Below, piece by piece: positions 28,201-42,573 of a DNA stretch of 64,000 nucleotides. Position numbers and translations under genes: made by a program. Position 1 is the stretch's first letter, and the number at the start of each line of letters is the position of its first letter. The notes beneath the pieces are model-generated. The model did no database searches, had not been told where the DNA came from, and worked only from the letters and a program-made list of their open reading frames with translations. Origin of the DNA: Candidatus Omnitrophota bacterium (lineage in GTDB: Bacteria > Omnitrophota > Omnitrophia > Omnitrophales > Aquincolibacteriaceae); contig JACKFM010000001.1 of the NCBI GenBank assembly GCA_020632475.1, positions 272,125-336,124 of the forward strand, read 5' to 3'.

Positions 28201-31200
28201 CGGTTTTGATCAGCATCCCAAGCATGCGGCAGTTACCTCCTTCGGCGGCTATCTCAACGAACGTTTGCAACGGCGTGCATCGGAATTACCCGGATTAATT
28301 TTTGAAGCGCTGACTGCCGCGCAGGACCAAACAACAGTTGATCAGCTGCAAGGTTATGCTGTGGAACTTGAAGCTTTGAGGGGACAGACCACTGATGCAA
28401 CTGAGTCCGCTCAGTCCTCCCGCCAAACAGAAGGCGGGCAGGCAGTCCTCAGTCCTCAGTCCTTAATAGCAATCCGCCAGGCCTACGAAAACGGACGGTT
28501 GAGAGAAGCGGCTGATCAGGTTTCAGGGCTCGCTCAGGCACCAGGGCCGTATCAGGAGACTCTGCGCCAATTTGCCGGCAGAATCGAACAGGAGATTGAA
28601 GCCAAGGTGACTCCGTTGGAACGGCAGATTCAGGAGTTTGTACAGGATTTATTTAAACGAGTTGAGGACAATCTGGCTAGAGCTGTTTCTCAAAGTACTG
28701 CCGATACCAAAACGGCTCTTGCTGAAGTTGAAAGAGATCTCCGTGAAGTTCAGGCGCGGTTAGGGCATCTTCCGCAGTCTGATTTTCTTGCGTCTGAGCG
28801 GAAGCGTCACGAGGTCTTTTCTGCGCAGATTGGGCGTATCCGCCCTGCCGTAGAGATGATCGAAGAAATCGAATTTTTGCCGGGATCTTTTGTGCCCGGT
28901 GATTATGAGGCGAATCAGAATCAAATCAGAACATTATCCGGCCGGGTGGATACGTTCATTGCCTCTGAGCTTCAGGACCAAACGGATGCAGACTGGATTC
29001 TGAAAATTCAGAATGCAAGGCAGAGTCTGATTAACGAATATACGGATGAAGCCTCAGAGACTTTGACAGCTCAATTGGAGGCCATTGTATCTCGGGGAGA
29101 TTTTCAAGCTCAAAGCCAAGGCTTAGCTGAACTTCAGGAAAGTATCGGGACTGTTCGTGCGTTTACGGCTGAGTTTAAGGTGAGCAAGGAAGATGATTTG
29201 AATAGGCTTGAAGTTGCCATTCAGGAAAAAGAAAAGGAACTTCAGGCAAAAAATGAAAGAGTTCAAGGCGTTCCGGTGATCATTGAAAGGATGAGAAAAG
29301 CGATCAGTGACATTCAAAGCGGAGAACAGGTTTCCGGCGGCCGGGTCAAACGGCTTCTGGCCGAAGGTTATGAACTCGGGCGGACTCTGGTTCCGGCCAA
29401 AGATGAAGGTGAGCTTGTCGCGCTTGGGAATGCCCGTAAAGATTTGGCCGGAGAATATTCTGAAGGTCTGTTGCTTGAGCTGGATCAGCGTAAAGATTTG
29501 GCCCACGGAAGAGATGCTGACGGGAAGCCGGTGGAGGCGGTTGAATGGACACCCCAAGAGATGCGTGATTTTCTTCTGAGATTGAATGATTTGTTGAATG
29601 TGGTTCGCAGTGCGCCTCAGGATAGGACCGACCCGGATACCGACCATTTATATCTGGGAATACAGGATGAGATGGCTGTGATTTTGAGACAGGGCGCGGG
29701 TCTGGCCGAGGGCGATATTTTGCGGTTACACCGTGCCAAAACAAAAAAAAGCGAAGAAACCACGATAGATATTCGTATCGACCGGATTGATTCAGAAGAG
29801 GTGCATTTTTCGGTGACGCTGCAGGGTTCCGAGGTGGCTCTTTCAGGGCATGATCTCATGGAAGAAACGCGTCATGAAAACGCGTGGCCCTTTAAAGCGG
29901 CTGAAGTGTCGGACAAGAGACAGAAGAATCCTGGAGAATCCAGCATGACGGTGACGCTGGGTTATCCCTCAGACGGTTCGGAGGCGGCGAGTCCCGATTG
30001 GGTGTTTGGCCTGGGTGAGGCCAAACCACTTTTTATTGCATCCTCCCGTGCGCGAAATGCACAGGGAACGGCTGATGAACAGATTTTTGAATTTTTGCAA
30101 AAAAATGCGGACATTCTGCTGAGTGCATGGCATCTGGATGAAGACGCGGATTATGTCACACTCGCTTTATATGAAAGAGATGAATCTGAAGAGTGGAGTC
30201 TGGAATTTGTCGAAAACCCCGAGAATGTTCAGTGGCGGCGCGATGCCGAAAGGGCTCTTGAAAACAAGGAGGAGAGAGCTGGTGAATTTCAGGAGTTGAT
30301 AGAACAGTTGCAGCTGGCGGAGCTTGAAATTAACGATGAGGAGACCGACTTTGTTCCGACGCTTGAAAATGTTCATCGAGTTGGAAATCTGCTCAATGAT
30401 GCGGCCAAACAATACAAACGCCTGGTGCCAGGGGTGGATGATGAAATGATGCAGAGTGTTACCGATGCTTTGACCAGCACTCTTCAGGCCTTTTTTACGA
30501 GTATTCTGACGGCCATTTATTATGAAACCGGAGAAAATCAGGATGGGCCGGAGATTTCCGCGGTTTTAAATCCGGATACGAATTTAAATCTGAATTTTGT
30601 GCATGAGTTGATGCTGATTGTGGGCGAAGCCATACGGACCTTGAGTGATTTTGAAAGCTATGAGCAGGTCCTGCGCGAACAATGGCTTTATCCGCTTTTT
30701 GAAATGGAAAATTACTTTTTAAAACAACACGGGGTCGCTCTTGTGGAAAACAGCCGGTTGACGGCCGTTGAAAGAACGAGCGGTGAATATAGTGATTTTA
30801 ATTTTGAAGGTATGGCTCAAGACCGGCAAAGCGGGCGGATTCAAAAAGGTTTGATCTCATGGACTGCACGTACACCGGCCGCGCAACTGCCTTTGATCGG
30901 AAGATTTATTAACTATAAATATCTGGATGAATTGAAGGGTGAGACTGATCCGTGGATGGCCTATGTGCATGAAGTTATTTCCAGAAGTAAACGACGGCAA
31001 CGTACACAAAAAGACGGTGGTGTCGTCACAACCCGGTTTAATATTCATTCATACGGCAACGATGAGGATAAACGCTGGTTTAATGCTTTTGCTCTTTATG
31101 ATCTCGATACCCTGATTGGGCTGGTGGGTGATGCGGAAACCGGACAATCGGGTTCTTTGGGTCTTGAAGAAGAGGACATTGACCGCTTAATGTTTGAAGC

Positions 31201-34200
31201 ACCGCGCCTGGCGATGCAGGTGCTTGAAACCGAACATGAAACCGCCGACGAAAGGGTTTATGTTACCCAGACGCTTTATACCAGTGATCCCGCGGCAGAC
31301 ACAGTTAATTTTCTTCGCGGCCGTTATCTTCTCCATTTCAGCGGGGAAAAAGAAAACGATCCGGTGCGTGCTGAAGCCTGGAAAGCAGTTAATGAGGCTT
31401 TTGAAAAATATCGTGAATCGTTTAGCCCGAAGAGTGAATTGAGAAGACAGACTGCAGACCTGGTGACGGGGAGACTGGGAGTCCCTCTTACGTCAAGACT
31501 CCGTTGGACAAGCGAGGAAAGTGAGTCGGAAAGTCAGAAGGTCGAAAGTTCTCTATACCCGGAGCAATCTTTACGCCGGTCCGAGGCGAGAAGAACGACC
31601 TTCTTTAGTTTACTCTCTCTTTTGAATTACTTTTCCGTATCCGCAGGACTGGGTTTCCTTGCACACATTCTGTTCCCTGCAATTCCTTATTTGCCCGCAG
31701 CCGTTTTTGTTGCAGCCGCCGTATTTACGGGGATCTCTCCCTTTGGGGAGGAGTGGTTAATGTCCTTGGCCGACCGATTGAGATGGATTCCCGAATCATG
31801 GGTAAAAAAACGCGCCGTTCGCTTTTATGATCAAATAGCCTCCAGAGCGCATGCCTTAAAAGACAGTGAAATGATTGAAGGGCTCAAGAGAATTAACCCG
31901 GCATCACCCGTACGGCTTTTAATGGATCATATTTTGATCAGGGTGATGCAGATGTCCGATACGATCGGTTTTTACATTGAACAGGTGTTGTTCAAATTTC
32001 TTTTTAACTATACTGCGGTGGAGCAAATTCTGGAATTAGGTTATCAAAACCGCTACCGTCAGTTACGTAACACCATTCATAATGCCTATTCGGAATATCT
32101 TATGGATCGGCTGGAAGATTCATTTCACCGTTTTTATATCAGTTATCAGCTTGCCGCGCGCAGCTTACGCTACGCTTATTGGCCGATGCTTCCCTGGATT
32201 TTTGCCCGGTTTAATTTTAACAGTCTGATATTACTCGCATCGTTGTTTAGAACCGGTCCGCCTCAGAGTGCTTATGCCGCGCCGTCACGCTTTACGGTTT
32301 TAAGCTATAACCTGAAGACCTTGTGGTTTTTAGTGAGGGCTTTGATTTTTCAGGAAGATCTGACCGCTGCCGACGAATCCTTTTTCATCTTTTCGCGATC
32401 GCTGGTTGATGATGTGCTGGATACACCTTACAGCGTCAATCATCAGGACCGGCCCCATTTGGTGCGTTATATCCTTGATCTGATGACCCGTGCGGTTTCT
32501 GAGCAGCCGGGCCTGACAGACAGAGAAATCCGCCATTGGCAGTGGATTTATGTCACACAGAATCATGAACGCAGGGCCTTTAGCGTTTTACGTCACTCAG
32601 CCCGATACCGTAACGTTTTACGGCGGTTTATGTCGAATGAGCGAATGATTATTGAATCAACCGGAGCCCTCAGCCTCCGGAAACTTTTACAAACACTTGA
32701 TCTCGAGACGGCGGATCAGGTGTCTCTTGAAATGTCAAAGCAAAGCCGACACCGTGAGGATGAATTCAGGGAAGTTTTTGAAGGGCATATTTCAGTCAAA
32801 AATCAACTGTTCCATTGGAAATATCACGCCGTGTGGGCCGGAGTAGTATTAATGCTGGTCACGGCAGTGATGTTTTTGGCCGGTGCTCATGGAGTATTTA
32901 TGATGCCGGCGCTTCATTTTTATGCGCTGTTTATGCCCATTACGATTGCGAGCTTTGCTGCGCTGGCATTCAGTCTGATTTACCGGCAGGTGAAACATCA
33001 ACTGGATGCCGAGCTGAAAGAAAAGACCGCGGCTCATAACGAGGATCAAAACACGAAGATCGGTTTTAAACCTATTCACTCCCGGGTGGTGCTGGCACGT
33101 TACATTCCGCCCGGTCAAGATCTGCATCAGTCGGTATTGGCCCAGATTACGGATGTGGATCATGAGCGCCGCAGTGTCAGCCTTAAATATATTCAAGACG
33201 GCCGTTTGATCTATCGGCCTAAAGTCAATATGCGTTTCATACAGGTTCTTCAGGCAACCCAAGATTCAATGGCTTTGTTGGCCCGCCCCGGATTTTTGGG
33301 CGAAAGGGAATACCCTGAAACAATGGACGCTCAGGTTCTTGAGCGTTTTACCGGAGAGTTTACCCGTCTGGTTAAAGAAGGGGCCGATGGTGATTCGTTT
33401 GCGCTTCAACAACGCCCTCATTTTATAAAATTTGTTCTCGGAGAATATTTTGATTTTCTTAGTAGTGAGCATCGTGATGAATCCGAAGGGTGGCTGGATG
33501 ATCTTATGAAAAGTACTCTTGCGGATAAATATCATTCGGTTTTTGTTTCGCCACGCGGTTATGGGCGCTATCTACCCGATCTCATCAAAGAATTTTACCG
33601 GAAAAAATATATTGATCCGGCCGGACGGTGGAATTGGCCCGTGCTTTATAAGACTTTTGGATACGATTTTGTTTCGAACCTGAGGATTGATCTTATGAAA
33701 AGCCGGGAAAGCCTGAATGCTCAAGCTCATCTGAATCAGCTGGAATCCATTGAAGGAAAATTGGCCACCAGAGCATTTGTTTTGCGTATTGCACTTATGG
33801 CAGCCTTTTTGTTACTGCCGCTTTCACTGGTTTTTGCGGCCATGCCCAACTCGTTGGTCTTCATTGCTTCTGTGGCTTCAGTGACCCTGTTTTTCGGAGT
33901 CGATTTTTTTACCGGCCGGCTGGTGGATACGCTTGTCGATTATTCTCTGAAGTTAAAAAATCCTCATCAACCGCTTAACGCCTATGCCGATCAGGTGCTT
34001 TCGCAGCTTCAAATCGGTGATGAAGTTGAATATTTTGACCCGCGATACGCAGTGGTCCAAAAAGGTCTTTTACGACAGGAACTAGAGAAAGACCAACCGC
34101 TGGTGGCCGAGGTGCTTTCAATCAACCGCCAAAACCGGACCGTACGTTTGCGTTATTACTATTCCCGGGTAAGCAGTGATGGTCTTGAGTCGCATTACAC

Positions 34201-37200
34201 ACCCGACCAGGTTGAAGAAACAAGTGTGCTCGGCGGCCGAATTGAGAAACTGGAGTTAATTTCCGAACTTTTGGACGATCAGCTCAATGCCGGTGTGCCC
34301 AGGCATGCCGAACTCCGTACGTTGACCTCCCTTAAGCGTTTGGATGATAAAGTCATTGAGATTTATGAAGCCCGCATGGCGGCACTTAAAGCCAAATCCC
34401 AAAAACATAGGATCTTTTTTGGAGTGATCGCACTGGCGATTGCAGCCCTTGCCGCTATTTCATGGCAGACAGCGATATTGCTTGCAGCCCCATACGTGAT
34501 TTATGAGCTTGCGCGCATTTTGTTTTTTGATCATACGACGGTTCGCTGGCCGGTTCTGGGTGCTTTTTTTCGGGCAATTCCTGCGCGCGAAATGCAATTT
34601 CCAGCCCTTCAGAGGTTGTATGCCGATCCCGTGCAGTATTGGAACCAACGCAGTGTTCGTCAACGCGCACAAAGAATTGCGGATGTTGCCGAACAACGCT
34701 TTAAAGACGAGGTGAAAATTGTCAGGACCGTCGAACATACGGCTGATTTTGCTGAAAATGCGGCGGATGTTCTAAAACTGGTCACGGGTCGTGGTGGGGA
34801 AATTCAGGCCGGAAAAGGATTTGATCAGCGTGTGTTCACCCGGTTCAAAAGGGTTTATGCGGTAGACGAGGATGCTGTTTTTATGCTGACTCGGGACGGC
34901 CGTTTTTATCTGATGCATAAACTTGAATCCGGGACCCAGGAGGCTTCCGGCCGCGTGCAGGCCATTTTTGAAGCCGAGAGTCTGGGCGCTGTGACAGTGC
35001 CCATTCAGGTATCCGGGCGTCTGATCCGGAAAACCGTTCAGCAGGGCAAACAACGCGTTGAAGAATCCGTCACTAAAATTGATGGAGTGCCGTACGCCTT
35101 TTATAAGATCGAGAATTATCCCGATTGGTTTTTTAATCCCGAAGTAACCCTTGAACAAAAACAAGCGATGCTTGTGCGTGAGCAGAGCCCAGACTTGGTG
35201 ACGGGGAGACCGGGAGATGGGGAGACAGGGAGAAAAGAGACGGGGCGACAGGGTGACGGGGTGAGTGAGTTTAAAAGTCAGCAGGTCGAAGGTCCGGAAA
35301 GTCCTCAAGTCCCAGTTGAGTCCGCTCAGTCCCCAGTCCCCAGTCCTCAGTCCTCTGAAGCAACTGAGCCCGCGCCACTGCTCCCGAGCGACGAGCAACC
35401 AGCGACGAGCGACATCAATCCAGCCGAGTTGGAAAATGTTTCCGCGGATACGAGCGATCAAACCGTGCAGCTTGTGCGGGATCATACGGCGTATGCGGCC
35501 GATTTAAGCGGAGAAAGTGCCGGCGCAGAGGAGTTAAGAGACGCGTTGGCACATCTGACGCATGCCGTGCAATTGGGTTTGAAATTATTGGAGGTTGCAG
35601 CGCAAGATGCAGATACGCGCGATCTGCTTTATATCGCCGGGCAGTTTAAGTCTCTGTCGGATGCACTTGAGCGTGCTTTTGAGATTCGCGGAAGGTATCG
35701 TGCCTTAGTTCCGGAAGCCGAAGAACCCAGTCTGGATGAAAATCCGCTGATTCTGATGACTGCAACTCTATGGGAAGATGAATTCATGAAATATTTACCG
35801 GTGCCGCAGGCAGCCCGGATTTTGGATGCCGCCGCGCGTATGGCCTCAGAAGAACAATATTCTGAATCGGATTTGGCCGACAGTTTGTGGGCCACAGCAC
35901 TTCAAACCCTGGATCGCGACTGGACTCTGGATCTGGGATTTGAACGTTTGATGTATCAAAAGCAGGAAGCCGTTCAGAAAGAAAAGGTTAAAACGGCTGA
36001 GGTGGATTCTGAAAACCCGGCGCTTAAAAAGCAATTAAGTGATTTCTATTCTGGAGTCGGGCGGTTAAGAAAAGGGACTCCTGATAATGAGGCCATTATT
36101 GCGGTCGCTCTCCAGATTTTTGAAGCGATCAGTGACTGGCCGGATGAATATTATCAGAGAAAGGACGTTCAGGGGATGTCGATTGCCATGAGTCAGCTGG
36201 CGGGAATCATGCGTGAGCATGACCTTTATGAGCGTGCGGTAGAACTCCTGAAGCTTTATGTTTCCAAAACTGAAAATCAGCCGAATGCGTTTATTCTTTT
36301 TCATCTGGGTGGAATTTACCGCCGTGCAGCCCATTTTGCCTGGAAGGCAAACGATAGAAAAACCAATATCCGCTATTTAGAACGATCACTTTTTTATTAT
36401 GCGCAAGGATTGCCGGGTGCCAATCCGGATGAAAAATTGGATCCGGTGCTTGAGGGGTTGGCCAATCAGGTCATTCCGACGTTACTTAAAGCCGCACGCG
36501 AAGGCCGTTTTGATTGGAAAATGCTTAATCCGACACTTCGGCAATTTGTGACTTCAATCCGTCTGCTGATGCGACGGCATGAATGGATTCCTCAAAGCCA
36601 TGGTCAGCTGCTTGCACTGGCTTTAAACAAGATTGTGTTGGATTGGAAAACCCAAGGCCTTTATCAGGCTGCACAATTATCCGCTGAGTTGGCCTATGCG
36701 CTTGATCCTGTCAATCCGTATGTTCTTTTTAATCTTGCCGACATTGCCGTGGCGCAGGGGCGTTTGGACAAAGCGCGTGAATATAGAGAAGAGATTGTCC
36801 GTCTGAATGAGACCGCAGTAACACCATTTGATCTAAGAGTGCTTAATAGCCTTATTCGGCAGGCCGAGCGCAAAGAGGACCGCACGGATAAGGTGTTTGC
36901 ACCTGCGCATCAGGTGGTTATGTCGACCAAGAGAAGACGTGTGTTGGAAACAAAACTTCGGACATTGCCGCAAACAGCCGCGGCAGAGATTGACGAAACC
37001 ACACCGGCCGAAACGGACTGGAATGCCCTGATTGCCCTTTTGGATGAGATTGAGGTCTTTCACCGCCGTGTACGGACCGGTGAGCTGGTTGATGGAGCAG
37101 TGTTTGAAGAACAGGAGCGCCTTCAGAATCAAATCGCCGGATATGAATTTGAAGAAATCGGAAGATTTTATGCATTATTGTATCTGGATTCCACCGATGA

Positions 37201-39994
37201 AACAGCGATTGACGCTGAAGTTCAGTCATTAGAGCAATATCTGCAAAATCAAAAATCCGAACTGAGAAGCAAGACAAGCGAGAAAAGAGAACATAAGGAC
37301 TGGTACTTTATTAAACAAAGAATTACGGGAGCCTATCAAGGTCTGTTTTTATGGAGACCTGCGGGATTTCAATATAAACCCGGTTTTTTTGAAGCATCCA
37401 AAAAAAATTCAAATGGTGAAGATCAAACCGTGCGCACACTCATCGCGGCGGTTTTTGCCTATACTGAAAAACGAACGGCGGAGGCCACGCCTCAACAGAA
37501 AATGATTGCCGCCAGAATGCAGACCCTTCGGGAGTCTTCGGCTGTAATCAGTATCGAAGACTATCCATTCCATTTTTTAAGACCGGGCGACGCAGTAAAA
37601 TTACCTGAGGCGACACGCGTTTCAGTGAGACGCCGCGCCATTCACATTTCGCGAAAATTGGTGGATGCGCTTAATCCCGAATCTGAACTGGATCTGGCGA
37701 TTCTGGCGTACTATTTAAATCGCGCTCAATATCAAATTGATCTTTATCATGACAATGCGGTTGCTCAAAAGCCAATTAGTGAAGCTCATCGAAAGATGAC
37801 CCGTGCCCGTGTGCGTCCGGATTATAAGGACCGCCGGTTTTTCTTTGGGAGCTTTGATTCCGAACAGGTTGGCTTCAGGTTTAAAGAGCTCCAGGACACT
37901 GATGCGGAGCTCTTGCGGGGAGATATCCCGCTCGAACAAGCGGCCGAACAGGAAGGCGCAGTGACCTTTGCCAATCGTCTTGATGATATTTTTGGAGAAT
38001 TAGGCGCAGATGAAACCGTTCCTCATGATCAGGATCTCCTGGGGCTGCTGCTGGCGACGGCACGCAACTTTGAACGTCTTGGTGTCGTGTATGACTTGAG
38101 GGACGATCATGCCAAGGCCGAAGAATTCTATAGCCGTGCGATTAAACTCTATACTTATGCTTTAAAGATTGATCCTACGGGTTGGGGGCCTGCCTTAATT
38201 CAGGAAGAAGTCATTTTTACTCTTCTTCGGCATGGGCGCGTGAAGGAATTCATCCAGGCATTCAAAAAATTGTTTACCGCGGGATATACCTTGAAAGATT
38301 TCCGCCAGAGGCAAATGGAGTTTGCCGAACCGGTTCTTCTGGAATGGGCGGTTCAGGCACTGCCCGATATGCTTTATAAACTTCATTTTTACCTTGCGGT
38401 CTTTCACAAGACCGGGGATCTGAAAAAGGTTCGTGAAGCAATTGTGACTGTGCGTAAACAGTATCAGGAAGTTATTTTTGAACTTGATGCACGTAAGCGA
38501 AATGCCCGTCGTGTCGGTGCCGATGCTAAAAGATTTGTGTCTAGTCACGGAATTCCTCGAAAACGTTATGGTTTGAGAATAAGTCAGTTTGCCGAGACGA
38601 ACAGTCTTCTTCATCGGCGCTTTAAACAAATTCAGGCAAAACTTGAACGCCGTTTGCCGGGATTATTTATTTTCCCGGAAGCCGCCGAAATGCCTTTAGC
38701 GGCCGTCAGTCTTATGCAGCAACGGCCGATTGCTCAATCCAGACTTGAGCAGGCAAAGACTCAATTCGAGCAATTGGATCGCCTTACACTTGAAAATGAA
38801 TATGCAGCGGTCCAGGCGCTTGTGAGCGGTTCTGAGTTTGTCGGATTTAAAATGCAGGTCAGAGATGAAGAGGCTTTGCGTCAGTGGAGAGCTGCGGCCG
38901 GAGATCAATCCCAGCGCAGGCGTTTATATCTTCCCGTTGCATGGCCAAAACGAAAACTGACTGTTGAGGAAGCTCATGCCGTTTCTGATATTCTGGCCGG
39001 ATATAGTTTGGCACACATGGGCCGGTTAAAGCTGAATGATCCATCGTTGATTTATTACGAAGATATGATGCTTCGCCGGTACACCGTACTGAAAAAAACC
39101 GAACTTCGACGGCAGGCCGCAGACTTGGGGACGGGGGGAGAAATCAAGACTTCCGTCTCAGTTGAGCAACCGTCCATTCAGTCCTCGGCCCTCAGTCCTC
39201 AGTCCTTCAGTGTAACTGAGTCTGTGGACCGTGAACTGTCAACTGTCGTCGTTTCAGTTGAGCAACCGTCCACTCAGCCCTCAGTTCTCAAACCTCAGTC
39301 CTTGCATTTCATCCATGACGGTCCGCGTTTTGGAATCATCCCTTTGCGTTTTCTTGAAAGCATGGGAGCCGTTGCGGTCATGAAACGTTTCGGGGCCGTG
39401 CTCTTTGGTCCGGCCGCTTATGCGGATACCATCAGTGCCAACCCGCTGACATTGGCAGAGTTAGCGCCGGCGGCAGGGCCTGTTCGGCCGATTCGCAGAA
39501 CTGTTTCCGATGAACGCAAAACCAAAGCTTTGGCCGCTCTCGGGATTAAGCAGGAAGGGGGTGCCTATGTCATGGGTTCCGGCTTTGCTCTGGAATATGG
39601 TGCATTGGCCGCATGGCATGAGATCTTTGGCAAAAAACCGGTTGTGGTGATTGTCCGCAACACTGAAGAACGCCGAAAAATCGAACAATATAATAAAGAG
39701 GTTCTGGTTAAACAGGGGTACCCGTCTGTTTTAATTGCTGATAATTTTCGTCAGGCCCGGACACAGATTGAAAAAGCGGTTTCTCAAATAGATGCGTCCC
39801 TGCGCGTTCAGGGCTTTTTCGCAACGGAGGATCTGGACCTGGCCGCTGAAGCCGAAGCGCTCAAAAAGCAGCTGGCTGATTTTTCGATTTATATACGCTC
39901 GCAAAACGAATTCCAGCGGTTTATTCGTGCTGCCCATCTCGAAGACATTGTTCAGACCTTCCTGGCAGCAAACGAGGTTTCCAGCGCTGCGTAA
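13226..39994 (+). CDS. giant multidomain protein 1 (8,922 aa) with signal peptide, conserved N-terminal domain, Nudix module, coiled-coil megaregion, polytopic membrane region and TPR-like C-terminal region
   Basis: Uninterrupted 26.8-kb ORF. Domains, in order:
- N-terminal signal-like MLMQKTKKQYLKIIAVLTAVVFTLTSLELQPLARA.
- Nudix box GX5EX7REUXEEXGU (...AEAALRETIEETGAK) at about 15900-16460.
- Lys-rich stretch KKKKDKKEKKKKRKENR at about 22435-22500.
- E/Q/R/L-rich heptad-like region at about 24400-30400.
- Hydrophobic helices at 31590-34530.
- TPR-like repeats at about 36100-36800.
The N-terminal roughly 450 aa are homologous to the start of giant ORF 2. Confidence 0.9.
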   Translation: MLMQKTKKQYLKIIAVLTAVVFTLTSLELQPLARAMQVAPAAVSGEISPHSVFELNLPPELGVIQNLISGDRGAIVHLQAAHGNYDAQKKIENILHYLKDQYGMNLLLVEGSAFKLRPERIRFFPKQMNLNREILEGLAHKALVKGAELFLAEDKGAEAYGIENLETYKADAEAFRSVMEHREQIENFLKRLHQDIEALKAQTLNPVLKNFLREAERYFQNTTLLGDRIHWLAAQSKDQLEIDFSNVIYQMDWPMLVRYFALKTVEGKLDSTAFEKERDAFLAVLVGDRAEALPAGQAGLSPLVTKRVTTLLTEPISENQLPDPETGLLFEKMAEALPLNFDYDAYPNVKLFIGHLILQSEIKAAPLYAEIDRLENQILEKLIRTPAEREVVEKIKQARLLEKLLHLELMPEEWKKLQTADLATGRKETGRQGEGVTGSESVIPAEAAPSGGQAGIHSTTEPSAFDLLPSLSAERPSVQSSRHTEGGQAALSPQSFDIPEDMQTIYQNALEFYRLAEKRDEAMLENIEAKLAETGKNKAVVITGGFHSQAFFEHFRENGYSYALVSPEIKELSGREAYVESMLKNSSAHRRQTADDGLATEIASPTARNDGSLSIIPAQAGIHSTTETSRPSALSPQSSLESLFLALSRQEIEQSGGNTRWLFQQVRNEIRNVLKRHDLKALDLKSELRTDATDESASAAAADTEMFAPEITWIRQASGEQGDQPYLIRLRLEQSKALSGGTGFQNRYLVEVAALDQMMDIDTVQNNPRLYAGSISLTFDWQGKLIKNEQFNLIFLIGIDLIFNEILKKDIQPFILQKLESLTGKAFNETNAELIDGAASFDDVLRHDRRLSPERDYNALTPGQFRNTFYAGYESGRIQHESMYEQWKATGGTEGEDKFHIGGMIILRKINGKWSFLLGRRNKTGKPFYRDYTIPVGKKESRIGLGLEFDRFFNQRKLEKLKTIGLTLHDGEIMDPVEFIAEAALRETIEETGAKHDPLYGPTVSDFVARLNDFEGYDPRVLISLFVYIDENDSPDVNETEELVDYRWVPLDVILISGDPGEAVQEFLGPGEHLIREFRETGLLHFQKILRDALTPWTKFPSKTELRIEPGLNLKSELRSGEEFLAAHQETVGTYSGQSILLIGSMNDGDLARSIAEALIAGYENFTLRLFDPDDGQVVQEFGTSLRQGLKQGVTVTATREVNEALKKFATQQATIIINVSPHEKPFDGFENVPESVHVLKATVTSDGSATQDVEQPSPQPSVLSPQSSALTEPSQSFMAKSAFERKLEALAEPGSVTERNDDGWKEIAVWFSSYMIEEIPDEELSDLDKEAREIFMRSLTVSGAYKDNRPKAITAFTNLKKSPQGIKQFKDLFAVHIAHINHIIKALREERIEEQGEIPKAGASDEERQRHDYKQLIRSDEKSVQYEFIPNFFSAGMADDGEDPRNAESRFILNPFYFYRESGLHGVTDPSVTAALLIDRDNPVRSIRVIESEGHRSLLLEFESDQTLLTPYGKKKSSYPIPGGYLRMFVLKQNEVDDSGWEAFGKNIEQDLGTYTFGEDEDVPAKKQKLEALFEKVTAGQVLVQDLYTQTTPQLIRNFSDYMGRSADEANAIYFHHWAIYEGRKKDNPESVTPVAIDRDFLEEHFQAWKENKPVPDIPLRAVTGEGMETVTEHERWIEEILDPENGWNQFEWLQALDAVLQSHLPEVWESTIASGPGTMQLAESEFQTGGGAEDAGEPLLGTSSSMLPGFETPGLFQPDEPRNFLLAESSKVWELNEYERKVVAEVTAENKEALRDIKNRLNYKIAEPEEVQIYLRAYAATLNRKLKSYRLDAEQGLPGTVEDNEAILDRPLEESIEAYRDGIRHLERRQEFGTWLHLASGGLVVSGSETDSRAAFNPAILLALRRAGFVPGYPVRDFNAQDYLSEHKEALDVHQNKNILIVGLSSKESEKLSIALAEQFETEGITITLVDEATTPAEAKDHEKAFRESYPNLHLKVITKPGEIQGALSEAGLIFKTHDSEKLFISEQKIPEGVRVLEVPLAAQQTIESLLDDRIRPEKLNVHNPLSLGRVNPIRRIIAVEGRGKTPPHLVVEFSSPAGGYSSKFIRLNILHESLPESPREDEMTDAFMKRVFEYNYAVLQGFEINGTESAEDRKRIIDGLKDLAAQGLILAETRYELKHDEEHIGRFADFTARSETEAKAIRAFYPAIYARDTLATHRMRLAQKLGFNLGMYGPQTAAIFLKRVHMIDVHPELSILRDEAESKGFFAPLIALSVAAEDDGSILLGDANAEIDSFMAKVLNVIGKARRPSIDLVGRLETVEALIQTKAESDAAGTANSKAWIIDTGDPEEDRTLAREIRYIFRLEVLYRLTYETFHSDNLIRGTHADGTSMRVKVWNALSQKAEQIWHSDTTSSRIWMLALNVNRDKWESFVAEQWPGFWQIFTEPETEDNGAFLAQNSGVMAINQRRLLPASLPETLGKFSKFTERDMPREKTGFDITAIPNRTTLTAEEIRAGITLKKFPAQKLNGGFEAILQSLKRSGIEDLARFKRKESRKMQAFLDDIVAIRELYEAGHYEEALRIVNRYVAFQPQPASAADGAVVSGDRAEALSPDSTAAASTAALLTGTGDEGAHIDWRGYLPEGDLIEPPVDGAAEALGEMQTRLIEKVKRRSGGTSVVTILHDLDRAGHIGQTFNVLMAALAKIAEGHEDDDTAAARALVDEIKILIPRQIKSGASADIDAFEEKTHEMSDDDALNELEVIETDFSQTVDVLRGPVAGEIFSDQLDEGTRAFEQSLEYLGKVRRVLESSIAMTHDAANHPETVRGLLQSSAELAGEFNAENQWGIRLGFARAAYARRFTDAALAGQTQTQTADLETGRVGDGETRQKEVGQAGRESVGVDAAEPTLQKSRRQLLAETQPEVSKHDPENPDELWTFVQSEGCEGCMIVQFTPGGWLYSTESQARVREAFNKNDQTRAKKRDADTVSNAMAAYRETSAGSVVIVPDERINLRGAWHDSGNKVLYFGEKVFRAATAAMIVVALEKHDLNGLNQAAAAYWKSVAQSAQPAAVPKKKKDKKEKKKKRKENRAAARGPQDLTAEIAILEGFPGMQEELRAVSVNESASPEVESPESPQHDVEPVQPVERLATSDVSTAESEGPKEAVEPVELPQSSRQTEGGQAVLSPQTPEAVESESQVVVEPVDSGPSTVDSSAAEIVEPVEPMDHGLPTVDSSGATEPPQPSNILDPALRVRFKESVQAGVIRGQVSANRMFLEKPNPLVGEFDQKIVLDTSEMPDGAFFVMPVSTPKDTVMPLVQAPDAVKRGRIAKIRRYVSQHTLDTQIMEHTDQVTALVKAGRAVKGEPKTRFEAIFDRGIELLLIPDASGKTVEQRMHETEVRYAGRHEEFEKTVRAVQDYNRWFLYYSSRFVDLTGRLKKKTGDNQQVDVEVLSEILTELARSEKTWPELQSEIKRIREHIPSSGTMNYQEARLLIGRGESIIGNMILDDMLSAASPDILQVVFYDARSTFFLEWYRTQKQAIPEGEDDLLRFEATLLMSVRMLVNYKLESQMTEQITEAAREFSANERMTRKVVSAGGLLYAGQTNRYFQGGGAIETSGEYAPNYSRIHSSAFYEKGDRVIFLYHSETGYPNPAEQQNYLNDSTILRESLEDNAGVYLGTIDAEGELRIFEYAGNDLGIETFEFVEAFDRALDKKFWAPIKTSALKSEDELRVERRRITAHQFAQIAEAELAQIPGMDQVKASRLMLDARRQFKPELDRLAAMKLKHPGAPPKAKNLQKAYKKQLKAVQVELDVVDDLIDSLAARLVMYISERIAAESPDHGDWKQIAIEGLSGIVPPRWVPVEELEVPAQPVPAGKSPAAGLSDERQAKLASQIDQVIESVISKTEMTDGDEIAALRAFAHTQWDHGGSPGYARLKAAWNQNRAVFVQISALQGVEPGDLQAVETALSHSVQATRPQARIEQAQKELLSRMADAVLTEIEEALGAVYAGARAELRQQVRSEIRIEAVEVLDEKLTRVEAAMALMQRFPDLADAERMTQLNRAKARIQSIRLAAPLLFRFDQAHPEITAESAKTVRQLLTDARDVLASIQEFNVPEDSARLIETRNRLIYRYAEVVQAAVPQDPTGPDPQSAGLASAAAALLTEFHEPDFQTAIDALQRLVSSAQRRKAAEQMVESLTGLQPGLQDESLTSAVAVRVREVLEGVEGFLTGPDAQEDEWSERVRNLRDDMIAQISRRIDQVGHDKGETAADLQKTVNQLKAIREGLEGTEVPVLSPVIERLHALEETVGHEFHAAVLRERPLYEDFREIEGPSDYVKDLLIRILNVESQGDKTPAQWKALHQEFFDYFLVLEGNTARPGQAQPNAAEAEVWNKARKAFDGEAGPKMQAYRHEFGFTAGKLLTKEFAMQRDPKNKVGSFGSESDQPLSAKRIQLQPTKTLLLMALNMARIFAGQAAEAQEHRGPPLEAMPEANPAMNAEEAFAFMREYLINDNRRDGFLYYNNQPLALGYLSSSAVHENSVGAPINLSHLEAARHSGLMPVLGIEQFLRAISFNGVKKVDLIEANADNPPALAVWFAKPFTESFTEFAYEGATLVVLKEAPQEGRDIHDLVESSGEQINRYVFSESDDADEKARKTAALLDLITEEKTLYRGTYRVSFFAENAVKLGRTMGRTRAEEWLITQSVKLGFVSPQAYIKRYGESAPTYAEWYHRFRLFKQVQRPLLAFFTGAGPRSSELERENIAFMIQNELTLPLARLLIARSGKDWLIDPRAVAGFAAGMNKFIARGVVGSLDALAWANTELESNAARAAFSAEFGLSLLSEFQRKNLQGLDIYDLRQALVRETELVFGVNLNIDVRTYRSPVKSAKDAAAVKVQIEQEDNALWNLFETPGDQQVSAEIEQRLEKRRQLGPDPVTVDCTSAESCAQGIADLTQWVRVRQTHPEVTDYLGVIESAVQARVLAERGNVRQALSEIEIILSQPGFDQHPKHAAVTSFGGYLNERLQRRASELPGLIFEALTAAQDQTTVDQLQGYAVELEALRGQTTDATESAQSSRQTEGGQAVLSPQSLIAIRQAYENGRLREAADQVSGLAQAPGPYQETLRQFAGRIEQEIEAKVTPLERQIQEFVQDLFKRVEDNLARAVSQSTADTKTALAEVERDLREVQARLGHLPQSDFLASERKRHEVFSAQIGRIRPAVEMIEEIEFLPGSFVPGDYEANQNQIRTLSGRVDTFIASELQDQTDADWILKIQNARQSLINEYTDEASETLTAQLEAIVSRGDFQAQSQGLAELQESIGTVRAFTAEFKVSKEDDLNRLEVAIQEKEKELQAKNERVQGVPVIIERMRKAISDIQSGEQVSGGRVKRLLAEGYELGRTLVPAKDEGELVALGNARKDLAGEYSEGLLLELDQRKDLAHGRDADGKPVEAVEWTPQEMRDFLLRLNDLLNVVRSAPQDRTDPDTDHLYLGIQDEMAVILRQGAGLAEGDILRLHRAKTKKSEETTIDIRIDRIDSEEVHFSVTLQGSEVALSGHDLMEETRHENAWPFKAAEVSDKRQKNPGESSMTVTLGYPSDGSEAASPDWVFGLGEAKPLFIASSRARNAQGTADEQIFEFLQKNADILLSAWHLDEDADYVTLALYERDESEEWSLEFVENPENVQWRRDAERALENKEERAGEFQELIEQLQLAELEINDEETDFVPTLENVHRVGNLLNDAAKQYKRLVPGVDDEMMQSVTDALTSTLQAFFTSILTAIYYETGENQDGPEISAVLNPDTNLNLNFVHELMLIVGEAIRTLSDFESYEQVLREQWLYPLFEMENYFLKQHGVALVENSRLTAVERTSGEYSDFNFEGMAQDRQSGRIQKGLISWTARTPAAQLPLIGRFINYKYLDELKGETDPWMAYVHEVISRSKRRQRTQKDGGVVTTRFNIHSYGNDEDKRWFNAFALYDLDTLIGLVGDAETGQSGSLGLEEEDIDRLMFEAPRLAMQVLETEHETADERVYVTQTLYTSDPAADTVNFLRGRYLLHFSGEKENDPVRAEAWKAVNEAFEKYRESFSPKSELRRQTADLVTGRLGVPLTSRLRWTSEESESESQKVESSLYPEQSLRRSEARRTTFFSLLSLLNYFSVSAGLGFLAHILFPAIPYLPAAVFVAAAVFTGISPFGEEWLMSLADRLRWIPESWVKKRAVRFYDQIASRAHALKDSEMIEGLKRINPASPVRLLMDHILIRVMQMSDTIGFYIEQVLFKFLFNYTAVEQILELGYQNRYRQLRNTIHNAYSEYLMDRLEDSFHRFYISYQLAARSLRYAYWPMLPWIFARFNFNSLILLASLFRTGPPQSAYAAPSRFTVLSYNLKTLWFLVRALIFQEDLTAADESFFIFSRSLVDDVLDTPYSVNHQDRPHLVRYILDLMTRAVSEQPGLTDREIRHWQWIYVTQNHERRAFSVLRHSARYRNVLRRFMSNERMIIESTGALSLRKLLQTLDLETADQVSLEMSKQSRHREDEFREVFEGHISVKNQLFHWKYHAVWAGVVLMLVTAVMFLAGAHGVFMMPALHFYALFMPITIASFAALAFSLIYRQVKHQLDAELKEKTAAHNEDQNTKIGFKPIHSRVVLARYIPPGQDLHQSVLAQITDVDHERRSVSLKYIQDGRLIYRPKVNMRFIQVLQATQDSMALLARPGFLGEREYPETMDAQVLERFTGEFTRLVKEGADGDSFALQQRPHFIKFVLGEYFDFLSSEHRDESEGWLDDLMKSTLADKYHSVFVSPRGYGRYLPDLIKEFYRKKYIDPAGRWNWPVLYKTFGYDFVSNLRIDLMKSRESLNAQAHLNQLESIEGKLATRAFVLRIALMAAFLLLPLSLVFAAMPNSLVFIASVASVTLFFGVDFFTGRLVDTLVDYSLKLKNPHQPLNAYADQVLSQLQIGDEVEYFDPRYAVVQKGLLRQELEKDQPLVAEVLSINRQNRTVRLRYYYSRVSSDGLESHYTPDQVEETSVLGGRIEKLELISELLDDQLNAGVPRHAELRTLTSLKRLDDKVIEIYEARMAALKAKSQKHRIFFGVIALAIAALAAISWQTAILLAAPYVIYELARILFFDHTTVRWPVLGAFFRAIPAREMQFPALQRLYADPVQYWNQRSVRQRAQRIADVAEQRFKDEVKIVRTVEHTADFAENAADVLKLVTGRGGEIQAGKGFDQRVFTRFKRVYAVDEDAVFMLTRDGRFYLMHKLESGTQEASGRVQAIFEAESLGAVTVPIQVSGRLIRKTVQQGKQRVEESVTKIDGVPYAFYKIENYPDWFFNPEVTLEQKQAMLVREQSPDLVTGRPGDGETGRKETGRQGDGVSEFKSQQVEGPESPQVPVESAQSPVPSPQSSEATEPAPLLPSDEQPATSDINPAELENVSADTSDQTVQLVRDHTAYAADLSGESAGAEELRDALAHLTHAVQLGLKLLEVAAQDADTRDLLYIAGQFKSLSDALERAFEIRGRYRALVPEAEEPSLDENPLILMTATLWEDEFMKYLPVPQAARILDAAARMASEEQYSESDLADSLWATALQTLDRDWTLDLGFERLMYQKQEAVQKEKVKTAEVDSENPALKKQLSDFYSGVGRLRKGTPDNEAIIAVALQIFEAISDWPDEYYQRKDVQGMSIAMSQLAGIMREHDLYERAVELLKLYVSKTENQPNAFILFHLGGIYRRAAHFAWKANDRKTNIRYLERSLFYYAQGLPGANPDEKLDPVLEGLANQVIPTLLKAAREGRFDWKMLNPTLRQFVTSIRLLMRRHEWIPQSHGQLLALALNKIVLDWKTQGLYQAAQLSAELAYALDPVNPYVLFNLADIAVAQGRLDKAREYREEIVRLNETAVTPFDLRVLNSLIRQAERKEDRTDKVFAPAHQVVMSTKRRRVLETKLRTLPQTAAAEIDETTPAETDWNALIALLDEIEVFHRRVRTGELVDGAVFEEQERLQNQIAGYEFEEIGRFYALLYLDSTDETAIDAEVQSLEQYLQNQKSELRSKTSEKREHKDWYFIKQRITGAYQGLFLWRPAGFQYKPGFFEASKKNSNGEDQTVRTLIAAVFAYTEKRTAEATPQQKMIAARMQTLRESSAVISIEDYPFHFLRPGDAVKLPEATRVSVRRRAIHISRKLVDALNPESELDLAILAYYLNRAQYQIDLYHDNAVAQKPISEAHRKMTRARVRPDYKDRRFFFGSFDSEQVGFRFKELQDTDAELLRGDIPLEQAAEQEGAVTFANRLDDIFGELGADETVPHDQDLLGLLLATARNFERLGVVYDLRDDHAKAEEFYSRAIKLYTYALKIDPTGWGPALIQEEVIFTLLRHGRVKEFIQAFKKLFTAGYTLKDFRQRQMEFAEPVLLEWAVQALPDMLYKLHFYLAVFHKTGDLKKVREAIVTVRKQYQEVIFELDARKRNARRVGADAKRFVSSHGIPRKRYGLRISQFAETNSLLHRRFKQIQAKLERRLPGLFIFPEAAEMPLAAVSLMQQRPIAQSRLEQAKTQFEQLDRLTLENEYAAVQALVSGSEFVGFKMQVRDEEALRQWRAAAGDQSQRRRLYLPVAWPKRKLTVEEAHAVSDILAGYSLAHMGRLKLNDPSLIYYEDMMLRRYTVLKKTELRRQAADLGTGGEIKTSVSVEQPSIQSSALSPQSFSVTESVDRELSTVVVSVEQPSTQPSVLKPQSLHFIHDGPRFGIIPLRFLESMGAVAVMKRFGAVLFGPAAYADTISANPLTLAELAPAAGPVRPIRRTVSDERKTKALAALGIKQEGGAYVMGSGFALEYGALAAWHEIFGKKPVVVIVRNTEERRKIEQYNKEVLVKQGYPSVLIADNFRQARTQIEKAVSQIDASLRVQGFFATEDLDLAAEAEALKKQLADFSIYIRSQNEFQRFIRAAHLEDIVQTFLAANEVSSAA
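14084..14130 (+). repeat. intragenic hairpin repeat, family C (ggggacaggg...cctgtcccc), in-frame in giant ORF 1
   Basis: ggggacagggccgaagccctgcctgccggacaggcgggcctgtcccc, encoding GDRAEALPAGQAGLSP. The same arms occur at 21027-21056, 55038-55066 and intergenically at 42574-42599. Confidence 0.7.
14483..14548 (+). repeat. intragenic G-rich repeat, family D (cagacttggNgacggggaga...), in-frame in giant ORF 1
   Basis: cgcagacttggcgacggggagaaaagagacggggcgacagggtgaaggggtgacggggagtgag, encoding ADLATGRKETGRQGEGVTGSE. Related copies at 21842-21880, 31454-31480, 35190-35270 and 39119-39142. Confidence 0.7.
14661..14710 (+). repeat. intragenic hairpin repeat, family A (cccgccaaacagaaggcggg core), in-frame in giant ORF 1
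   Basis: agtcctcccgccacacagaaggcgggcaggcagccctcagccctcagtcc, encoding SSRHTEGGQAALSPQS. Near-identical copies at 22727-22777 and 28405-28463. An intergenic relative is at 42621-42645. Confidence 0.75.
15071..15142 (+). repeat. composite intragenic repeat: perfect hairpin attcctgcGCAAgcaggaat followed by a cctcagccctcagtcct unit (family B)
   Basis: 15071-15090 is an 8-bp stem with a 4-nt loop. 15111-15142 is ctcggccctcagccctcagccctcagtcctct. Together they encode IPAQAGIHSTTETSRPSALSPQSS. A related copy (caagcaggaatccatagtacaaccgag) sits at about 14580-14615. Confidence 0.65.
16988..17032 (+). repeat. family B (gagcaaccgtcc-cctcagccctcagtcctcagtcc) intragenic repeat
   Basis: gagcaaccgtcccctcagccctcagtcctcagtccccagtcctct encodes EQPSPQPSVLSPQSS. 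Related copies at 35321-35356, 39161-39210, 39256-39303 and 45763-45808, plus an inverted intergenic cluster at 43881-43938. Confidence 0.7.
21027..21056 (+). repeat. family C hairpin repeat copy in giant ORF 1
   Basis: cggggacagggctgaagccctgtccccgg encodes SGDRAEALSPD. Perfect 9-bp arms gggacaggg / ccctgtccc. Confidence 0.7.
21842..21880 (+). repeat. family D repeat copy in giant ORF 1
   Basis: gcagacttggagacggggagagttggagacggggagacc encodes ADLETGRVGDGET. Confidence 0.65.
22727..22777 (+). repeat. family A hairpin repeat copy in giant ORF 1
   Basis: cctcagtcctcccgccaaacagaaggcgggcaggcagtcctcagtcctcag encodes PQSSRQTEGGQAVLSPQ. Confidence 0.75.
28405..28463 (+). repeat. family A hairpin repeat copy in giant ORF 1
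   Basis: gtccgctcagtcctcccgccaaacagaaggcgggcaggcagtcctcagtcctcagtcc encodes SAQSSRQTEGGQAVLSPQS. Confidence 0.75.
31454..31480 (+). repeat. family D repeat copy in giant ORF 1
   Basis: gcagacctggtgacggggagactggga encodes ADLVTGRLG, preceded by RRQT as in the other copies. Confidence 0.55.
35190..35356 (+). repeat. composite repeat block in giant ORF 1: family D, then a gtccggaaagtcctcaa unit, then family B
   Basis: 35190-35270 is cagacttggtgacggggagaccgggagatggggagacagggagaaaagagacggggcgacagggtgacggggtgagtgag. 35287-35313 is gaaggtccggaaagtcctcaagtccc, and the same unit occurs at about 22597-22620. 35321-35356 is tccgctcagtccccagtccccagtcctcagtcctct. Confidence 0.7.
39119..39303 (+). repeat. 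repeat block near the 3' end of giant ORF 1: one family D copy and two family B copies
   Basis: 39119-39142 is gcagacttggggacggggggagaa. 39161-39210 and 39256-39303 both start gttgagcaaccgtcc and continue ...ctcagtcctcagtcc. They encode VEQPSIQSSALSPQS and VEQPSTQPSVLKPQS. Confidence 0.7.
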
Positions 39995-40213: not shown

Positions 40214-41056
40214 ATGGACGACATCAAAGGCTCCATAATTTGGGATAATCGTGAACGGACTTACCGCCTGCATGTGCCGCTGCATTATTTGCCGGATCAG
40301 ATTTATCCGCTTGTGATTGTTCTGCATGGCGGAGCGGCCAATGCCGAATATGCGATGCGGATGTCGGAGATGAACCGGATTGCGGATGAAGAAAATTTTC
40401 TGGTGCTTTATCCCAATGGAACCGGTATATACAAACATGCGGTTTTGACGTGGAATGCGGGTAACTGCTGCGGGTATGCGCATGAACATCAGGTCGATGA
40501 CGTGGGATTTATCCGGTCGCTGATTGGGTACCTGCAAAGCCATTATGGAATTGATTCTAAGCGAATCTATGCGACCGGGATTTCCAACGGTGCGATGATG
40601 GCCTACCGTCTGGCCGTTGAAATGGCGGGTGTGATCGCCGCGATTGCGCCTGTAGCCGGGCCGTTTAATCACGCAGGAACAATGCCTGAGGAACCCGTTT
40701 CGGTCATTGCCTTTCATGGCCTTGAAGATCAACATGCGCCCTATTTGGGCGGCACAGGTCCTAAAACACTCTACCCGCGTATTGATCGACCGGTGCAGGA
40801 AAGTATCCGGTTGTGGGTAGAACATAATCAGTGTTCACGAGAACCTCAAATTGAAAAGAAGGGTAAGATCACCTGCGAAACCTATCATGGCGGCCGCGGA
40901 GAAAGCAGGGTGGTTCTCTATACCCTTGAAGAGGAAGGACATACCTGGCCCGGAGGGCAGCCGGGGCTGCGTAACGGCAATGTCGATCCCCCGACGCAGG
41001 AAATATCGGCCAGCCGGCTGATATGGGATTTTTTCAAAGCCCACCCCAAGTCTTGA
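40214..41056 (+). CDS. alpha/beta-hydrolase esterase of the PHB-depolymerase (LpqC/COG3509) family
   Basis: LVIVLHGGAANAEYAMRMS...LYPNGT...TWNAGNCCGYA and the nucleophile elbow GISNG are characteristic of the extracellular PHB depolymerase-type esterase family. No obvious signal peptide. Confidence 0.65.
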   Translation: MDDIKGSIIWDNRERTYRLHVPLHYLPDQIYPLVIVLHGGAANAEYAMRMSEMNRIADEENFLVLYPNGTGIYKHAVLTWNAGNCCGYAHEHQVDDVGFIRSLIGYLQSHYGIDSKRIYATGISNGAMMAYRLAVEMAGVIAAIAPVAGPFNHAGTMPEEPVSVIAFHGLEDQHAPYLGGTGPKTLYPRIDRPVQESIRLWVEHNQCSREPQIEKKGKITCETYHGGRGESRVVLYTLEEEGHTWPGGQPGLRNGNVDPPTQEISASRLIWDFFKAHPKS

Positions 41057-41081
41057 CAAGTTCTGTGAAAGTATATACAAT
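41053..41081 (+). promoter_or_regulatory. candidate sigma-70 promoter for the sugar-modification gene cluster
   Basis: -35 TTGACA (41053-41058, a perfect match), a 17-nt spacer, and -10 TACAAT (41076-41081). This is about 65 nt upstream of the epimerase ATG. It overlaps the first arm of a perfect 10-bp inverted repeat, gtatatacaa (41071-41080) / ttgtatatac (41101-41110). Confidence 0.45.
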
Positions 41082-41146
41082 TTCAAAATCAAGGCCTTGT
41101 TTGTATATACACAAGGGTCAATTTATTCTTATCGGGGGTATGATCC

Positions 41147-42565: not shown

Positions 42566-42573
42566 CCCAAATA

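Follow-up and report, generated by a model that had tools for sequence, protein, structure and literature searches.

A 64,000-nucleotide stretch of DNA from a Candidatus Omnitrophota bacterium (assembly GCA_020632475.1, contig JACKFM010000001.1, positions 272,125 to 336,124; hereafter the window) encodes two very large proteins, giant 1 and giant 2, whose hydrophobic helices occur in closely spaced pairs, four in giant 1 and one in giant 2. On the reading that we favour, and to which we give an even chance of being right, these pairs are hairpin staples in exported proteins: each would consist of a stop-transfer sequence followed by a restart of translocation, with all large parts of the chain facing outward. 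The even number of crossings would place all large domains on one side of a membrane, and the readings that do so are, when combined, probable. Parity is the firmest of our conclusions on topology.

Hydropathy was examined by Kyte-Doolittle (KD) scans with a 19-residue window and a threshold of 1.6, and on the summed Hessa biological scale; transmembrane (TM) and signal-peptide calls rest on hydropathy, charge and the residue pattern at positions -3 and -1. The only membrane-grade segments of giant 1 are one at the N-terminus (residues 11-29) and eight helices between residues 6126 and 7100 (nucleotides 31601-34525); ~6,100 residues without such a segment precede the first hairpin, and 1,822 follow the last. 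Those of giant 2 are residues 10-23 and one pair at residues 604-655. In giant 1, the eight helices form four hairpins, designated H1 to H4 (Table 1), and the turn is 2-9 residues long in all five helix pairs of the two proteins. Inserts of 361, 266 and 165 residues lie between the hairpins of giant 1, an N-region of 6,090 residues before them and the C-region of 1,822 residues after H4. Its membrane region is a series of four separate hairpins, not a compact polytopic domain. The original prediction had counted about 9-10 helices here. The hydrophobic peptides that it quoted are all present in frame and in place, and TM-grade helices do occur at residues 6126-7100, but there are eight of them, in four pairs; the two helices that it described after the N-terminal domain of giant 2 are confirmed as the single hairpin of that protein. 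A possible ninth segment in giant 1, at residues 6321-6343, was rejected as below TM grade (KD 1.04).

The hairpin helices carry 0-2 charged residues each and combine a high mean hydrophobicity (Eisenberg <H> 0.58-0.89) with a low hydrophobic moment (0.06-0.36), the maximum <H> elsewhere in giant 1 being 0.57. KD values rise to 2.5, and the Hessa sum is below zero for three helices. By comparison, the sub-threshold peaks in the other ~13,000 residues all have Hessa sums of 6-11 and, with one exception (giant 2 residues 4026-4044), carry 1-5 charged residues. The second helix is short or marginal in H1, in H4 and in the hairpin of giant 2, that of H1 being bounded by prolines with ~15 residues between them, and that of giant 2 the weakest of all (KD 1.52, Hessa sum 2.6-2.9). 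Shuffling of giant 1 yielded 0.9 segments with a Hessa sum of at most 2.0, compared with 5 observed, and we estimate the chance that eight helices fall within 975 of 8,922 residues at ~8 x 0.109^7, or ~1.5e-6. We also considered the four hairpin modules of giant 1 as duplicates of one another and rejected this, as z-scores of up to 4 arise from hydrophobic composition and the aligned stretch covers only 21 residues. At the nucleotide level, the AT skew at 32001-34000 is the lowest in the window (-0.126); this dip coincides with the hairpins and is accounted for by the T-rich codons of hydrophobic residues.

Both proteins start with a signal-peptide-like sequence, as the original prediction had proposed: a Lys/Arg-containing n-region and an h-region of ~12 residues precede a polar c-region, which has small residues at -3 and -1. 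The two giants share an N-terminal head module with a family of relatives described below, and the signal-peptide type is conserved in all ten protein-database homologues that have a start codon and an intact N-terminus, as well as in most of 80 metagenome relatives, often as [AVL]-[YW]-S-A-P. Both proteins are also nearly devoid of cysteine (Cys), with 4 residues in giant 1, arranged in two close pairs (2942/2945 and 4930/4936), and 1 in giant 2, that is, 5 in 14,323 residues, whereas Cys makes up 1.33% of 14 other window genes (binomial P ~1e-74 for the depletion). The exclusion is uniform along both giants and on both sides of every hairpin; residues 6174-8922 of giant 1 and 20-5401 of giant 2 contain no Cys at all. 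In the head-module family, the Cys content is 0.057% compared with 0.77% in flanking open reading frames (ORFs), and 25 of 59 long relatives lack Cys altogether. Across the relatives' loci, it amounts to 0.35% in ORFs with a signal-peptide-like start and to 1.02% in those with neither such a start nor a TM segment. Exclusion of Cys is a known trait of exported proteins (PMC2823432). Judged by composition, its uniformity suggests a single compartment, and signal peptide and Cys exclusion together most likely point to the extracytoplasmic side.

As the helices are paired across turns of 2-9 residues, each crossing would be reversed at once, and as every cluster has an even count and no other TM-grade segment exists, all large parts would come to lie on one side. 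The original prediction had instead placed very large domains on both sides of the membrane, with catalytic modules in the cytoplasm. The even crossings per cluster and the uniform Cys exclusion argue for one side, and no cytoplasmic location can be assigned to the catalytic modules, as giant 1 has its NUDIX domain contiguous with the signal peptide. For the staples, we infer a course in which a cleavable signal peptide would start export of the giant, the first helix of each pair would act as a stop-transfer sequence, and the second would restart translocation and return the chain to the entry side. Giant 1 would be exported and yet pinned to the cell membrane at four points, and giant 2 at one point directly behind its head module; the N-region with its NUDIX domain, the three inserts and the C-region with its tetratricopeptide repeats (TPRs) would share the same face.

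Several observations weigh against an outward-facing arrangement. The net charge of the ten residues before the first helix is +3, +2, +1, +4 and +4 for the five hairpins, a sum that was reached by none of 20,000 random-window draws; the turns of giant 1 are free of positive charge, and the turn of giant 2 has a net charge of -2. At H1, the flanks are asymmetric, with +3 before and -3 after the pair. In the relatives, the N-flank of the first internal hydrophobic segment averages +1.16 and the C-flank -0.05 (Wilcoxon p = 0.003, n=43). Positive flanks combined with such turns are typical of TM pairs whose flanks are cytoplasmic (PMC13220792). With the signal peptide and Cys exclusion on one hand and positive-inside charges on the other, the side on which the giants lie is contested. 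The cytoplasmic side is also indicated by enzyme types, as relatives carry domains of cytoplasmic type (glutamate dehydrogenase, amino-acid kinase and HATPase_c), and NUDIX and GlnD-like nucleotidyltransferases are normally cytoplasmic enzymes. We rejected enzyme type as a decisive marker of side, since in giant 1 the chain runs from the signal peptide to the NUDIX domain without a TM segment on the way, which weakens the argument. Inserts 1 and 2 are basic, with isoelectric points (pI) of 9.3 and 8.0, in contrast to the acidic N-region (pI 5.0); since they reach only about the 90th-95th percentile of comparable windows, insert composition does not decide the side either. Parity is least certain at H1. 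An AlphaFold2 (AF2) model of giant 1 residues 6100-7120, built with no alignment, has a predicted local distance difference test score (pLDDT) of 37.8 and is usable for secondary structure only. In support of the pairing, DSSP of this low-confidence model places a helix break at each turn (residues 6153-55, 6556-61, 6871-76 and 7078-82), and an AF2 model of giant 2 residues 1-700 has a helix break at residues 626-627.

A topology with large domains on both sides seems to us unlikely. Here the signal peptide would export the head and the N-region, after which H1, or the hairpin of giant 2 by its first helix only, would cross an odd number of times, with the rest of the chain left in the cytoplasm and the later hairpins as ordinary TM pairs. 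Such a protein would connect an external portion with enzyme modules inside the cell, in a signalling or scaffolding role; the reading draws on the short, proline-bounded second helix of H1 and the reversal of charge across that pair, on the weakness of the second helix in giant 2, on inserts more basic than the N-region, and on the many relatives that have a single TM helix behind the head followed by cytoplasm-type domains (L131 and L161); the flanks of H2-H4 would then also satisfy the positive-inside rule. However, the positive flanks before H1 and the giant 2 hairpin would face outside, so that the conflict stays at the key crossing. The second helices in question are uniformly apolar with low moments (0.14 and 0.24), making a soluble or interfacial location unlikely, and Cys exclusion is equally complete in the supposedly cytoplasmic parts. 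The NUDIX domain would be outside here too, so the type of enzyme does not decide the matter. Both proteins might instead stay in the cytoplasm altogether, with an N-terminal segment that is not a functional export signal and hairpins that are TM pairs inserted by a YidC-type insertase, only their turns being translocated; they would then tether a giant enzyme scaffold to the inner membrane face. Such an arrangement agrees with the strongly positive stretch that precedes each hairpin and with turns that are short and either uncharged or acidic (cf. PMC13220792), suits enzyme domains of cytoplasmic type and spares ~9,000 residues any translocation; moreover, predictions class 46% of long Omnitrophota proteins as TM-only, that is, membrane-anchored cytoplasmic proteins (10.64898/2026.06.07.730766). 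We nevertheless consider it still less likely, because it must dismiss a cleavable-type Sec signal peptide whose kind is shared by more than 60 diverged relatives. Even taken as an anchor, the N-terminal segment with its positive n-region would insert N-in/C-out and leave the head outside, and a 20- to 40-fold Cys depletion relative to neighbouring cytoplasmic proteins would go unexplained.

Signal peptide and charge pattern would be reconciled if the giants were secreted, Cys-free proteins whose hairpins enter the membrane of a prey or host cell, or the producer's outer membrane, from the exterior, and there anchor the protein or deliver its enzyme modules in the manner of hairpins of toxin translocation domains. 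Cis-side post-translational insertion predicts what is seen, positive flanks on the entry side and crossing turns that are uncharged or acidic. The tip of the giant 2 hairpin has three acidic residues, and D627 closes helix a; in this it is reminiscent of the TH8-TH9 hairpin of diphtheria toxin, whose tip is likewise acidic. Cys exclusion covers whole proteins regardless of the TM parity of the relatives, the modules (NUDIX, nucleotidyltransferase) are effector-like, and a predatory or episymbiotic way of life has been reported for Omnitrophota, in which giant proteins are implicated in the attack (10.1101/2023.11.21.568195). We still regard this reading as improbable: given Hessa sums of -1.4 to +0.5, capture by the lateral gate of the producer's own Sec translocon would be expected from Hessa-type stop-transfer data, no secretion-system genes occur in the 64-kb window, sequence searches gave no homology to any toxin translocation domain, and the relatives with a single TM would need thousands of residues to cross the target membrane. 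There is a correspondingly slim chance that the head-module proteins are an undescribed Omnitrophota family of Cys-free, hypervariable secreted polyproteins whose hairpins tether or deliver nucleotide-dependent enzyme modules at a prey or host membrane; the modules so delivered would be NUDIX and nucleotidyltransferase in the giants, and dehydrogenases and kinases in the relatives. It is very improbable that the segments lie in the hydrophobic interior of globular domains and are not membrane helices. The AF2 model of the region is uninformative and leaves room for this idea, yet stretches of 18-24 residues with so few charges, such KD and Hessa values and low moments, paired across Pro/Gly/Asn turns, have no counterpart in the other 13,000 residues, and the same feature recurs in relatives; the preference of the original prediction for TM helices over buried cores is borne out.

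The membrane region (giant 1 residues 6100-7120, 1,021 residues) has no detectable homologue: nothing was found by a word-seeded HMMER search of 5.8 billion clusters, by exhaustive phmmer on 1.84 billion representatives, or in GTDB genomes and JGI metagenomes, and a PDB sequence search was empty. Pfam scans at E<=5 returned only chance-level matches (Claudin_2 and Tetraspanin), and no described transporter, channel or sensor family was matched in sequence searches. Elsewhere in giant 1, residues 4332-4827 (26219-27706) match residues 3234-3733 of one metagenome relative, L127, with 22% identity over 523 residues (E 2e-19); beyond the head, no other part of giant 1 or giant 2 matches any of the 80 relatives.

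Table 1. Features of the two giant proteins, with nucleotide positions in the 64,000-nucleotide window
Feature	Residues	Positions	Strand	Basis or remark
Giant protein 1		13226..39994	+	8,922 aa, single unbroken ORF
Signal-peptide-like N-terminus, giant 1	1-35	13226..13330	+	K-rich n-region, 17-aa h-region, A-R-A before M36
N-terminal head module, giant 1	~53-585	13382..14980	+	motifs NLPPELG, VHLQAAHGNY, LLVEGS, AVVITGGFH; alignments with homologues
NUDIX domain, giant 1	974-1054	16145..16387	+	Pfam E 5.1e-07
Hairpin H1, turn ILFPA	6126-6147 / 6153-6173	31601..31744	+	hydropathy; least hydrophobic pair
Hairpin H2, turn GVFMMPA	6535-6555 / 6563-6586	32828..32983	+	hydropathy
Hairpin H3, turn PNS	6853-6873 / 6877-6897	33782..33916	+	hydropathy
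Hairpin H4, turn QT	7063-7080 / 7083-7100	34412..34525	+	hydropathy; two short 18-aa helices
TPR-containing part of C-region, giant 1	~7810-8309	36653..38152	+	Pfam
Giant protein 2		45530..61735	+	5,401 aa
Signal-peptide-like N-terminus, giant 2	1-31	45530..45622	+	S-Y-A before Q32; contains the only Cys of giant 2
Head module, giant 2	~58-460	45701..46909	+	homologous to giant 1 head; AF2 model, Foldseek
Hairpin, giant 2, turn AETEIRATD	604-627 / 637-655	47339..47494	+	hydropathy; N-flank RRLRAQALRRK
GlnD_UR_UTase-like domain, giant 2	1988-2139	51491..51946	+	Pfam E 2.3e-05; C-terminal to hairpin
HExxH motif, giant 2	3288-3292	55391..55405	+	single motif; ~0.25 expected by chance; without family match

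Pfam scans of both giants detected only three families, NUDIX, TPR and GlnD_UR_UTase, and an NCBIfam scan of giant 1 gave no match. By the hydropathy scan, no TM segment separates the NUDIX domain of giant 1 from the head, which puts the two on the same side. Where the original prediction had spoken of HExxH modules, a motif is indeed present in giant 2, but it is the only one, with ~0.25 expected by chance and no family match (Table 1). No internal repeats were found in either giant, and enzyme-like modules are present, in line with the earlier statement that these are not simple fibrous adhesins. Searches of protein collections returned neither giant, not even as a self-match, whereas a neighbouring helicase from the same metagenome-assembled genome (MCB9799343.1) is present in NCBI; the deposited genome may lack annotation of the giant ORFs, or the collections searched may leave them out.

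The other genes of the window are of DNA-repair, tRNA-synthetase, GGDEF/EAL, sugar-modification and glycosyltransferase types; secretion-system, type II secretion, pilus and PilZ genes are absent from its 64 kb, and Rfam and tRNA scans of it found nothing. Its UvrD-like helicase is 100% identical to MCB9799343.1, which belongs to a Candidatus Omnitrophota metagenome-assembled genome, and this settles the origin of the window; its tryptophanyl-tRNA synthetase (TrpRS), with best matches of 65-70% identity in Chloroflexota, had been misleading in this respect. Sugar-modification genes lie between the giants (40214-45244) and after giant 2 (61940-63097), and the set comprises a PHB-depolymerase-like esterase, an NAD-dependent epimerase/dehydratase, a short-chain dehydrogenase, a C-methyltransferase and a GT1 glycosyltransferase. 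Directly upstream of giant 1 lies the gene for a GGDEF-EAL response regulator (10947-12575). Further upstream, an ORF of the endonuclease/exonuclease/phosphatase family (6532-7512, TTG start) is probably membrane-anchored, given about three hydrophobic segments within its N-terminal 80 residues.

The two giants resemble each other only in the head, within their first ~550-600 residues. This module, of ~400-550 residues, stands directly behind the signal peptide and carries the motifs LPPELG, IHIQxAHG, LLEG and VVITGGFH. It has 13 homologues in the protein collection, of which those with a name all come from Candidatus Omnitrophica, and it occurs at no fewer than 80 loci in JGI and ENA metagenomes (L087-L166), always at the start of a long ORF of 1,000 to more than 4,000 residues. 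The bodies behind it have nothing in common with those of giants 1 and 2, apart from the stretch in L127, and the family looks like an undescribed group of proteins with a conserved head and a hypervariable body. The head alignment shows no variation at H105, E133 and G134, and it also has a conserved GGFH motif. The AF2 model of giant 2, which covers the head and was built with the family alignment, has a core pLDDT of 70-90; its top Foldseek matches in the PDB are EreC (6xcs/6xcq), 3b55/2rad and ChaN (2g5g), all weak (E 0.016-0.57, TM-score 0.15-0.25). Sub-threshold Pfam matches were obtained to Cofac_haem_bdg (E 0.076) and TraB_PrgY_gumN (E 0.57), and a PDB profile search was empty. The modelled fold weakly suggests an erythromycin-esterase/ChaN-like domain, a lead rather than a classification. 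The motif pattern of the head (the His of IHIQxAHG, the Glu of LLEG and the His of GGFH) resembles that of the erythromycin esterase/ChaN/TraB-PrgY/TIKI superfamily, although all matches fall below significance and the head has about double the length and includes a large helical insertion. TIKI proteins have a layout of signal peptide, domain and TM that resembles that of the head-module proteins.

The internal hydrophobic regions of the relatives are of two kinds, single helices of ~20-30 residues, and blocks of ~45-51 residues or two near-adjacent helices; a rough count gives 72 single helices, 25 pairs and 11 larger clusters. Hairpin-type blocks of 45-51 residues are found in L090, L092, L097, L125 and others, and in many relatives a single TM follows the head directly, at the position of the giant 2 hairpin. 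This TM, which lies at residues ~620-730 in L100, L121, L131, L150 and L161, is often preceded by a very basic stretch with RR as its frequent ending, as in SRRHLIGITAGF, NRRMFFTTVGAA and SRRQWLVAGG. As a sequence pattern, the stretch looks like an internal signal-anchor or a twin-arginine translocation (Tat)-like n-region, and it is the opposite of what is expected of a stop-transfer sequence after an exported domain. Behind its one TM, L131 contains a complete glutamate dehydrogenase domain within a long body (residues 1099-1597), and L161 contains HATPase_c, amino-acid kinase and helix-turn-helix (HTH) domains (residues 1331-1746 and 2013-2059); both enzyme-carrying bodies are almost Cys-free. 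L105 (2,144 residues) and L114 (1,373 residues), both complete, have ~11-12 hydrophobic helices behind a shortened head, at residues 489-1207 and 478-1197, respectively; in contrast to giant 1 with its dispersed hairpins, these helices would make up a genuinely compact polytopic domain. At L083, a head-module protein of 1,178 residues (10001-13537) is followed by an ORF of 1,248 residues (13495-17241) that overlaps it by 43 nucleotides in a different frame. This layout recurs unchanged in three independent samples (also L084 and L085) and could be a real pair of genes or a conserved frameshift in one longer protein.

Giant proteins are known from this phylum. Full-length Omnitrophota giant genes encode numerous TM regions, on which TMHMM and DeepTMHMM often disagree (West-Roberts et al. 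2023, 10.1101/2023.11.21.568195), and DeepTMHMM assigns signal peptide plus TM to 39% of 916 Omnitrophota proteins of at least 10,000 residues, with ~2% of residues in TM helices (Nielsen & Lui 2026, 10.64898/2026.06.07.730766); the corresponding share in giant 1 is 1.8%. Like giants 1 and 2, the long and giant Omnitrophota proteins consist mostly of unannotatable sequence with few divergent enzyme domains, and have an N-terminal signal peptide and scattered TM helices. In this light, the membrane region is an ordinary feature of a known protein class, with the side observations perhaps of greater interest. At 8,922 and 5,401 residues, however, the present proteins are below the thresholds of both the catalogue (at least 10,000 residues) and the 'giant' category (more than 30,000 residues). 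Pfam scans of them detected no SecA_DEAD, dockerin/TSP3, C39 or S8 domain, unlike the West-Roberts classes, and their window lacks the type II secretion and pilus genes described for Omnitrophota giants. Helix pairing, an esterase-like head and Cys exclusion are mentioned in neither survey (10.1101/2023.11.21.568195 and 10.64898/2026.06.07.730766).

In their close helices, very short loop and flank charge bias of about +2 per pair, the hairpins resemble the TM-domain pairs described previously (Engelman & Steitz 1981; Wu & Hegde 2026, PMC13220792). Ordinary multipass TM pairs, by contrast, are joined by short cytosolic loops into one bundle, whereas the hairpins of the giants are set among soluble inserts of 165-361 residues and flanks of thousands of residues, and the signal peptide ahead of them predicts that these flanks lie on the opposite side. 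Hydrophobic helical hairpins are also found in toxins, among them TH8-TH9 of diphtheria toxin, the colicin pore domains and the hydrophobic region of large clostridial toxins. These share with the giants an apolar helix-turn-helix of ~40-50 residues in a large, secreted, multi-domain protein that bears an enzyme. They differ in that no sequence or fold similarity was detected, the first helices of the giants are more hydrophobic than is usual in these toxins and the four hairpins of giant 1 are dispersed rather than gathered into one compact domain. Ebh of Staphylococcus aureus is a giant Sec-exported surface protein with many tandem repeats and a single C-terminal anchor. Megadalton scale, an N-terminal signal peptide and TM anchoring are common to Ebh and the giants, but the latter have no internal repeats, and their anchors are internal hairpins after which 1,822 and 4,746 more residues follow.

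Both surveys of the enormous proteins of Omnitrophota call their own topology predictions unreliable. Giants 1 and 2 offer a small, clean test case, with only nine and three hydrophobic segments, respectively, when the signal peptide is included, and their nearly Cys-free background suits cysteine-accessibility mapping. The contradiction between signal peptide and positive flanks, which extends to ~40 relatives, indicates that automated 'inside/outside' labels for such proteins are not to be trusted at face value. Should insertion into a target membrane prove true, it would provide a mechanism by which these episymbionts act on their hosts.

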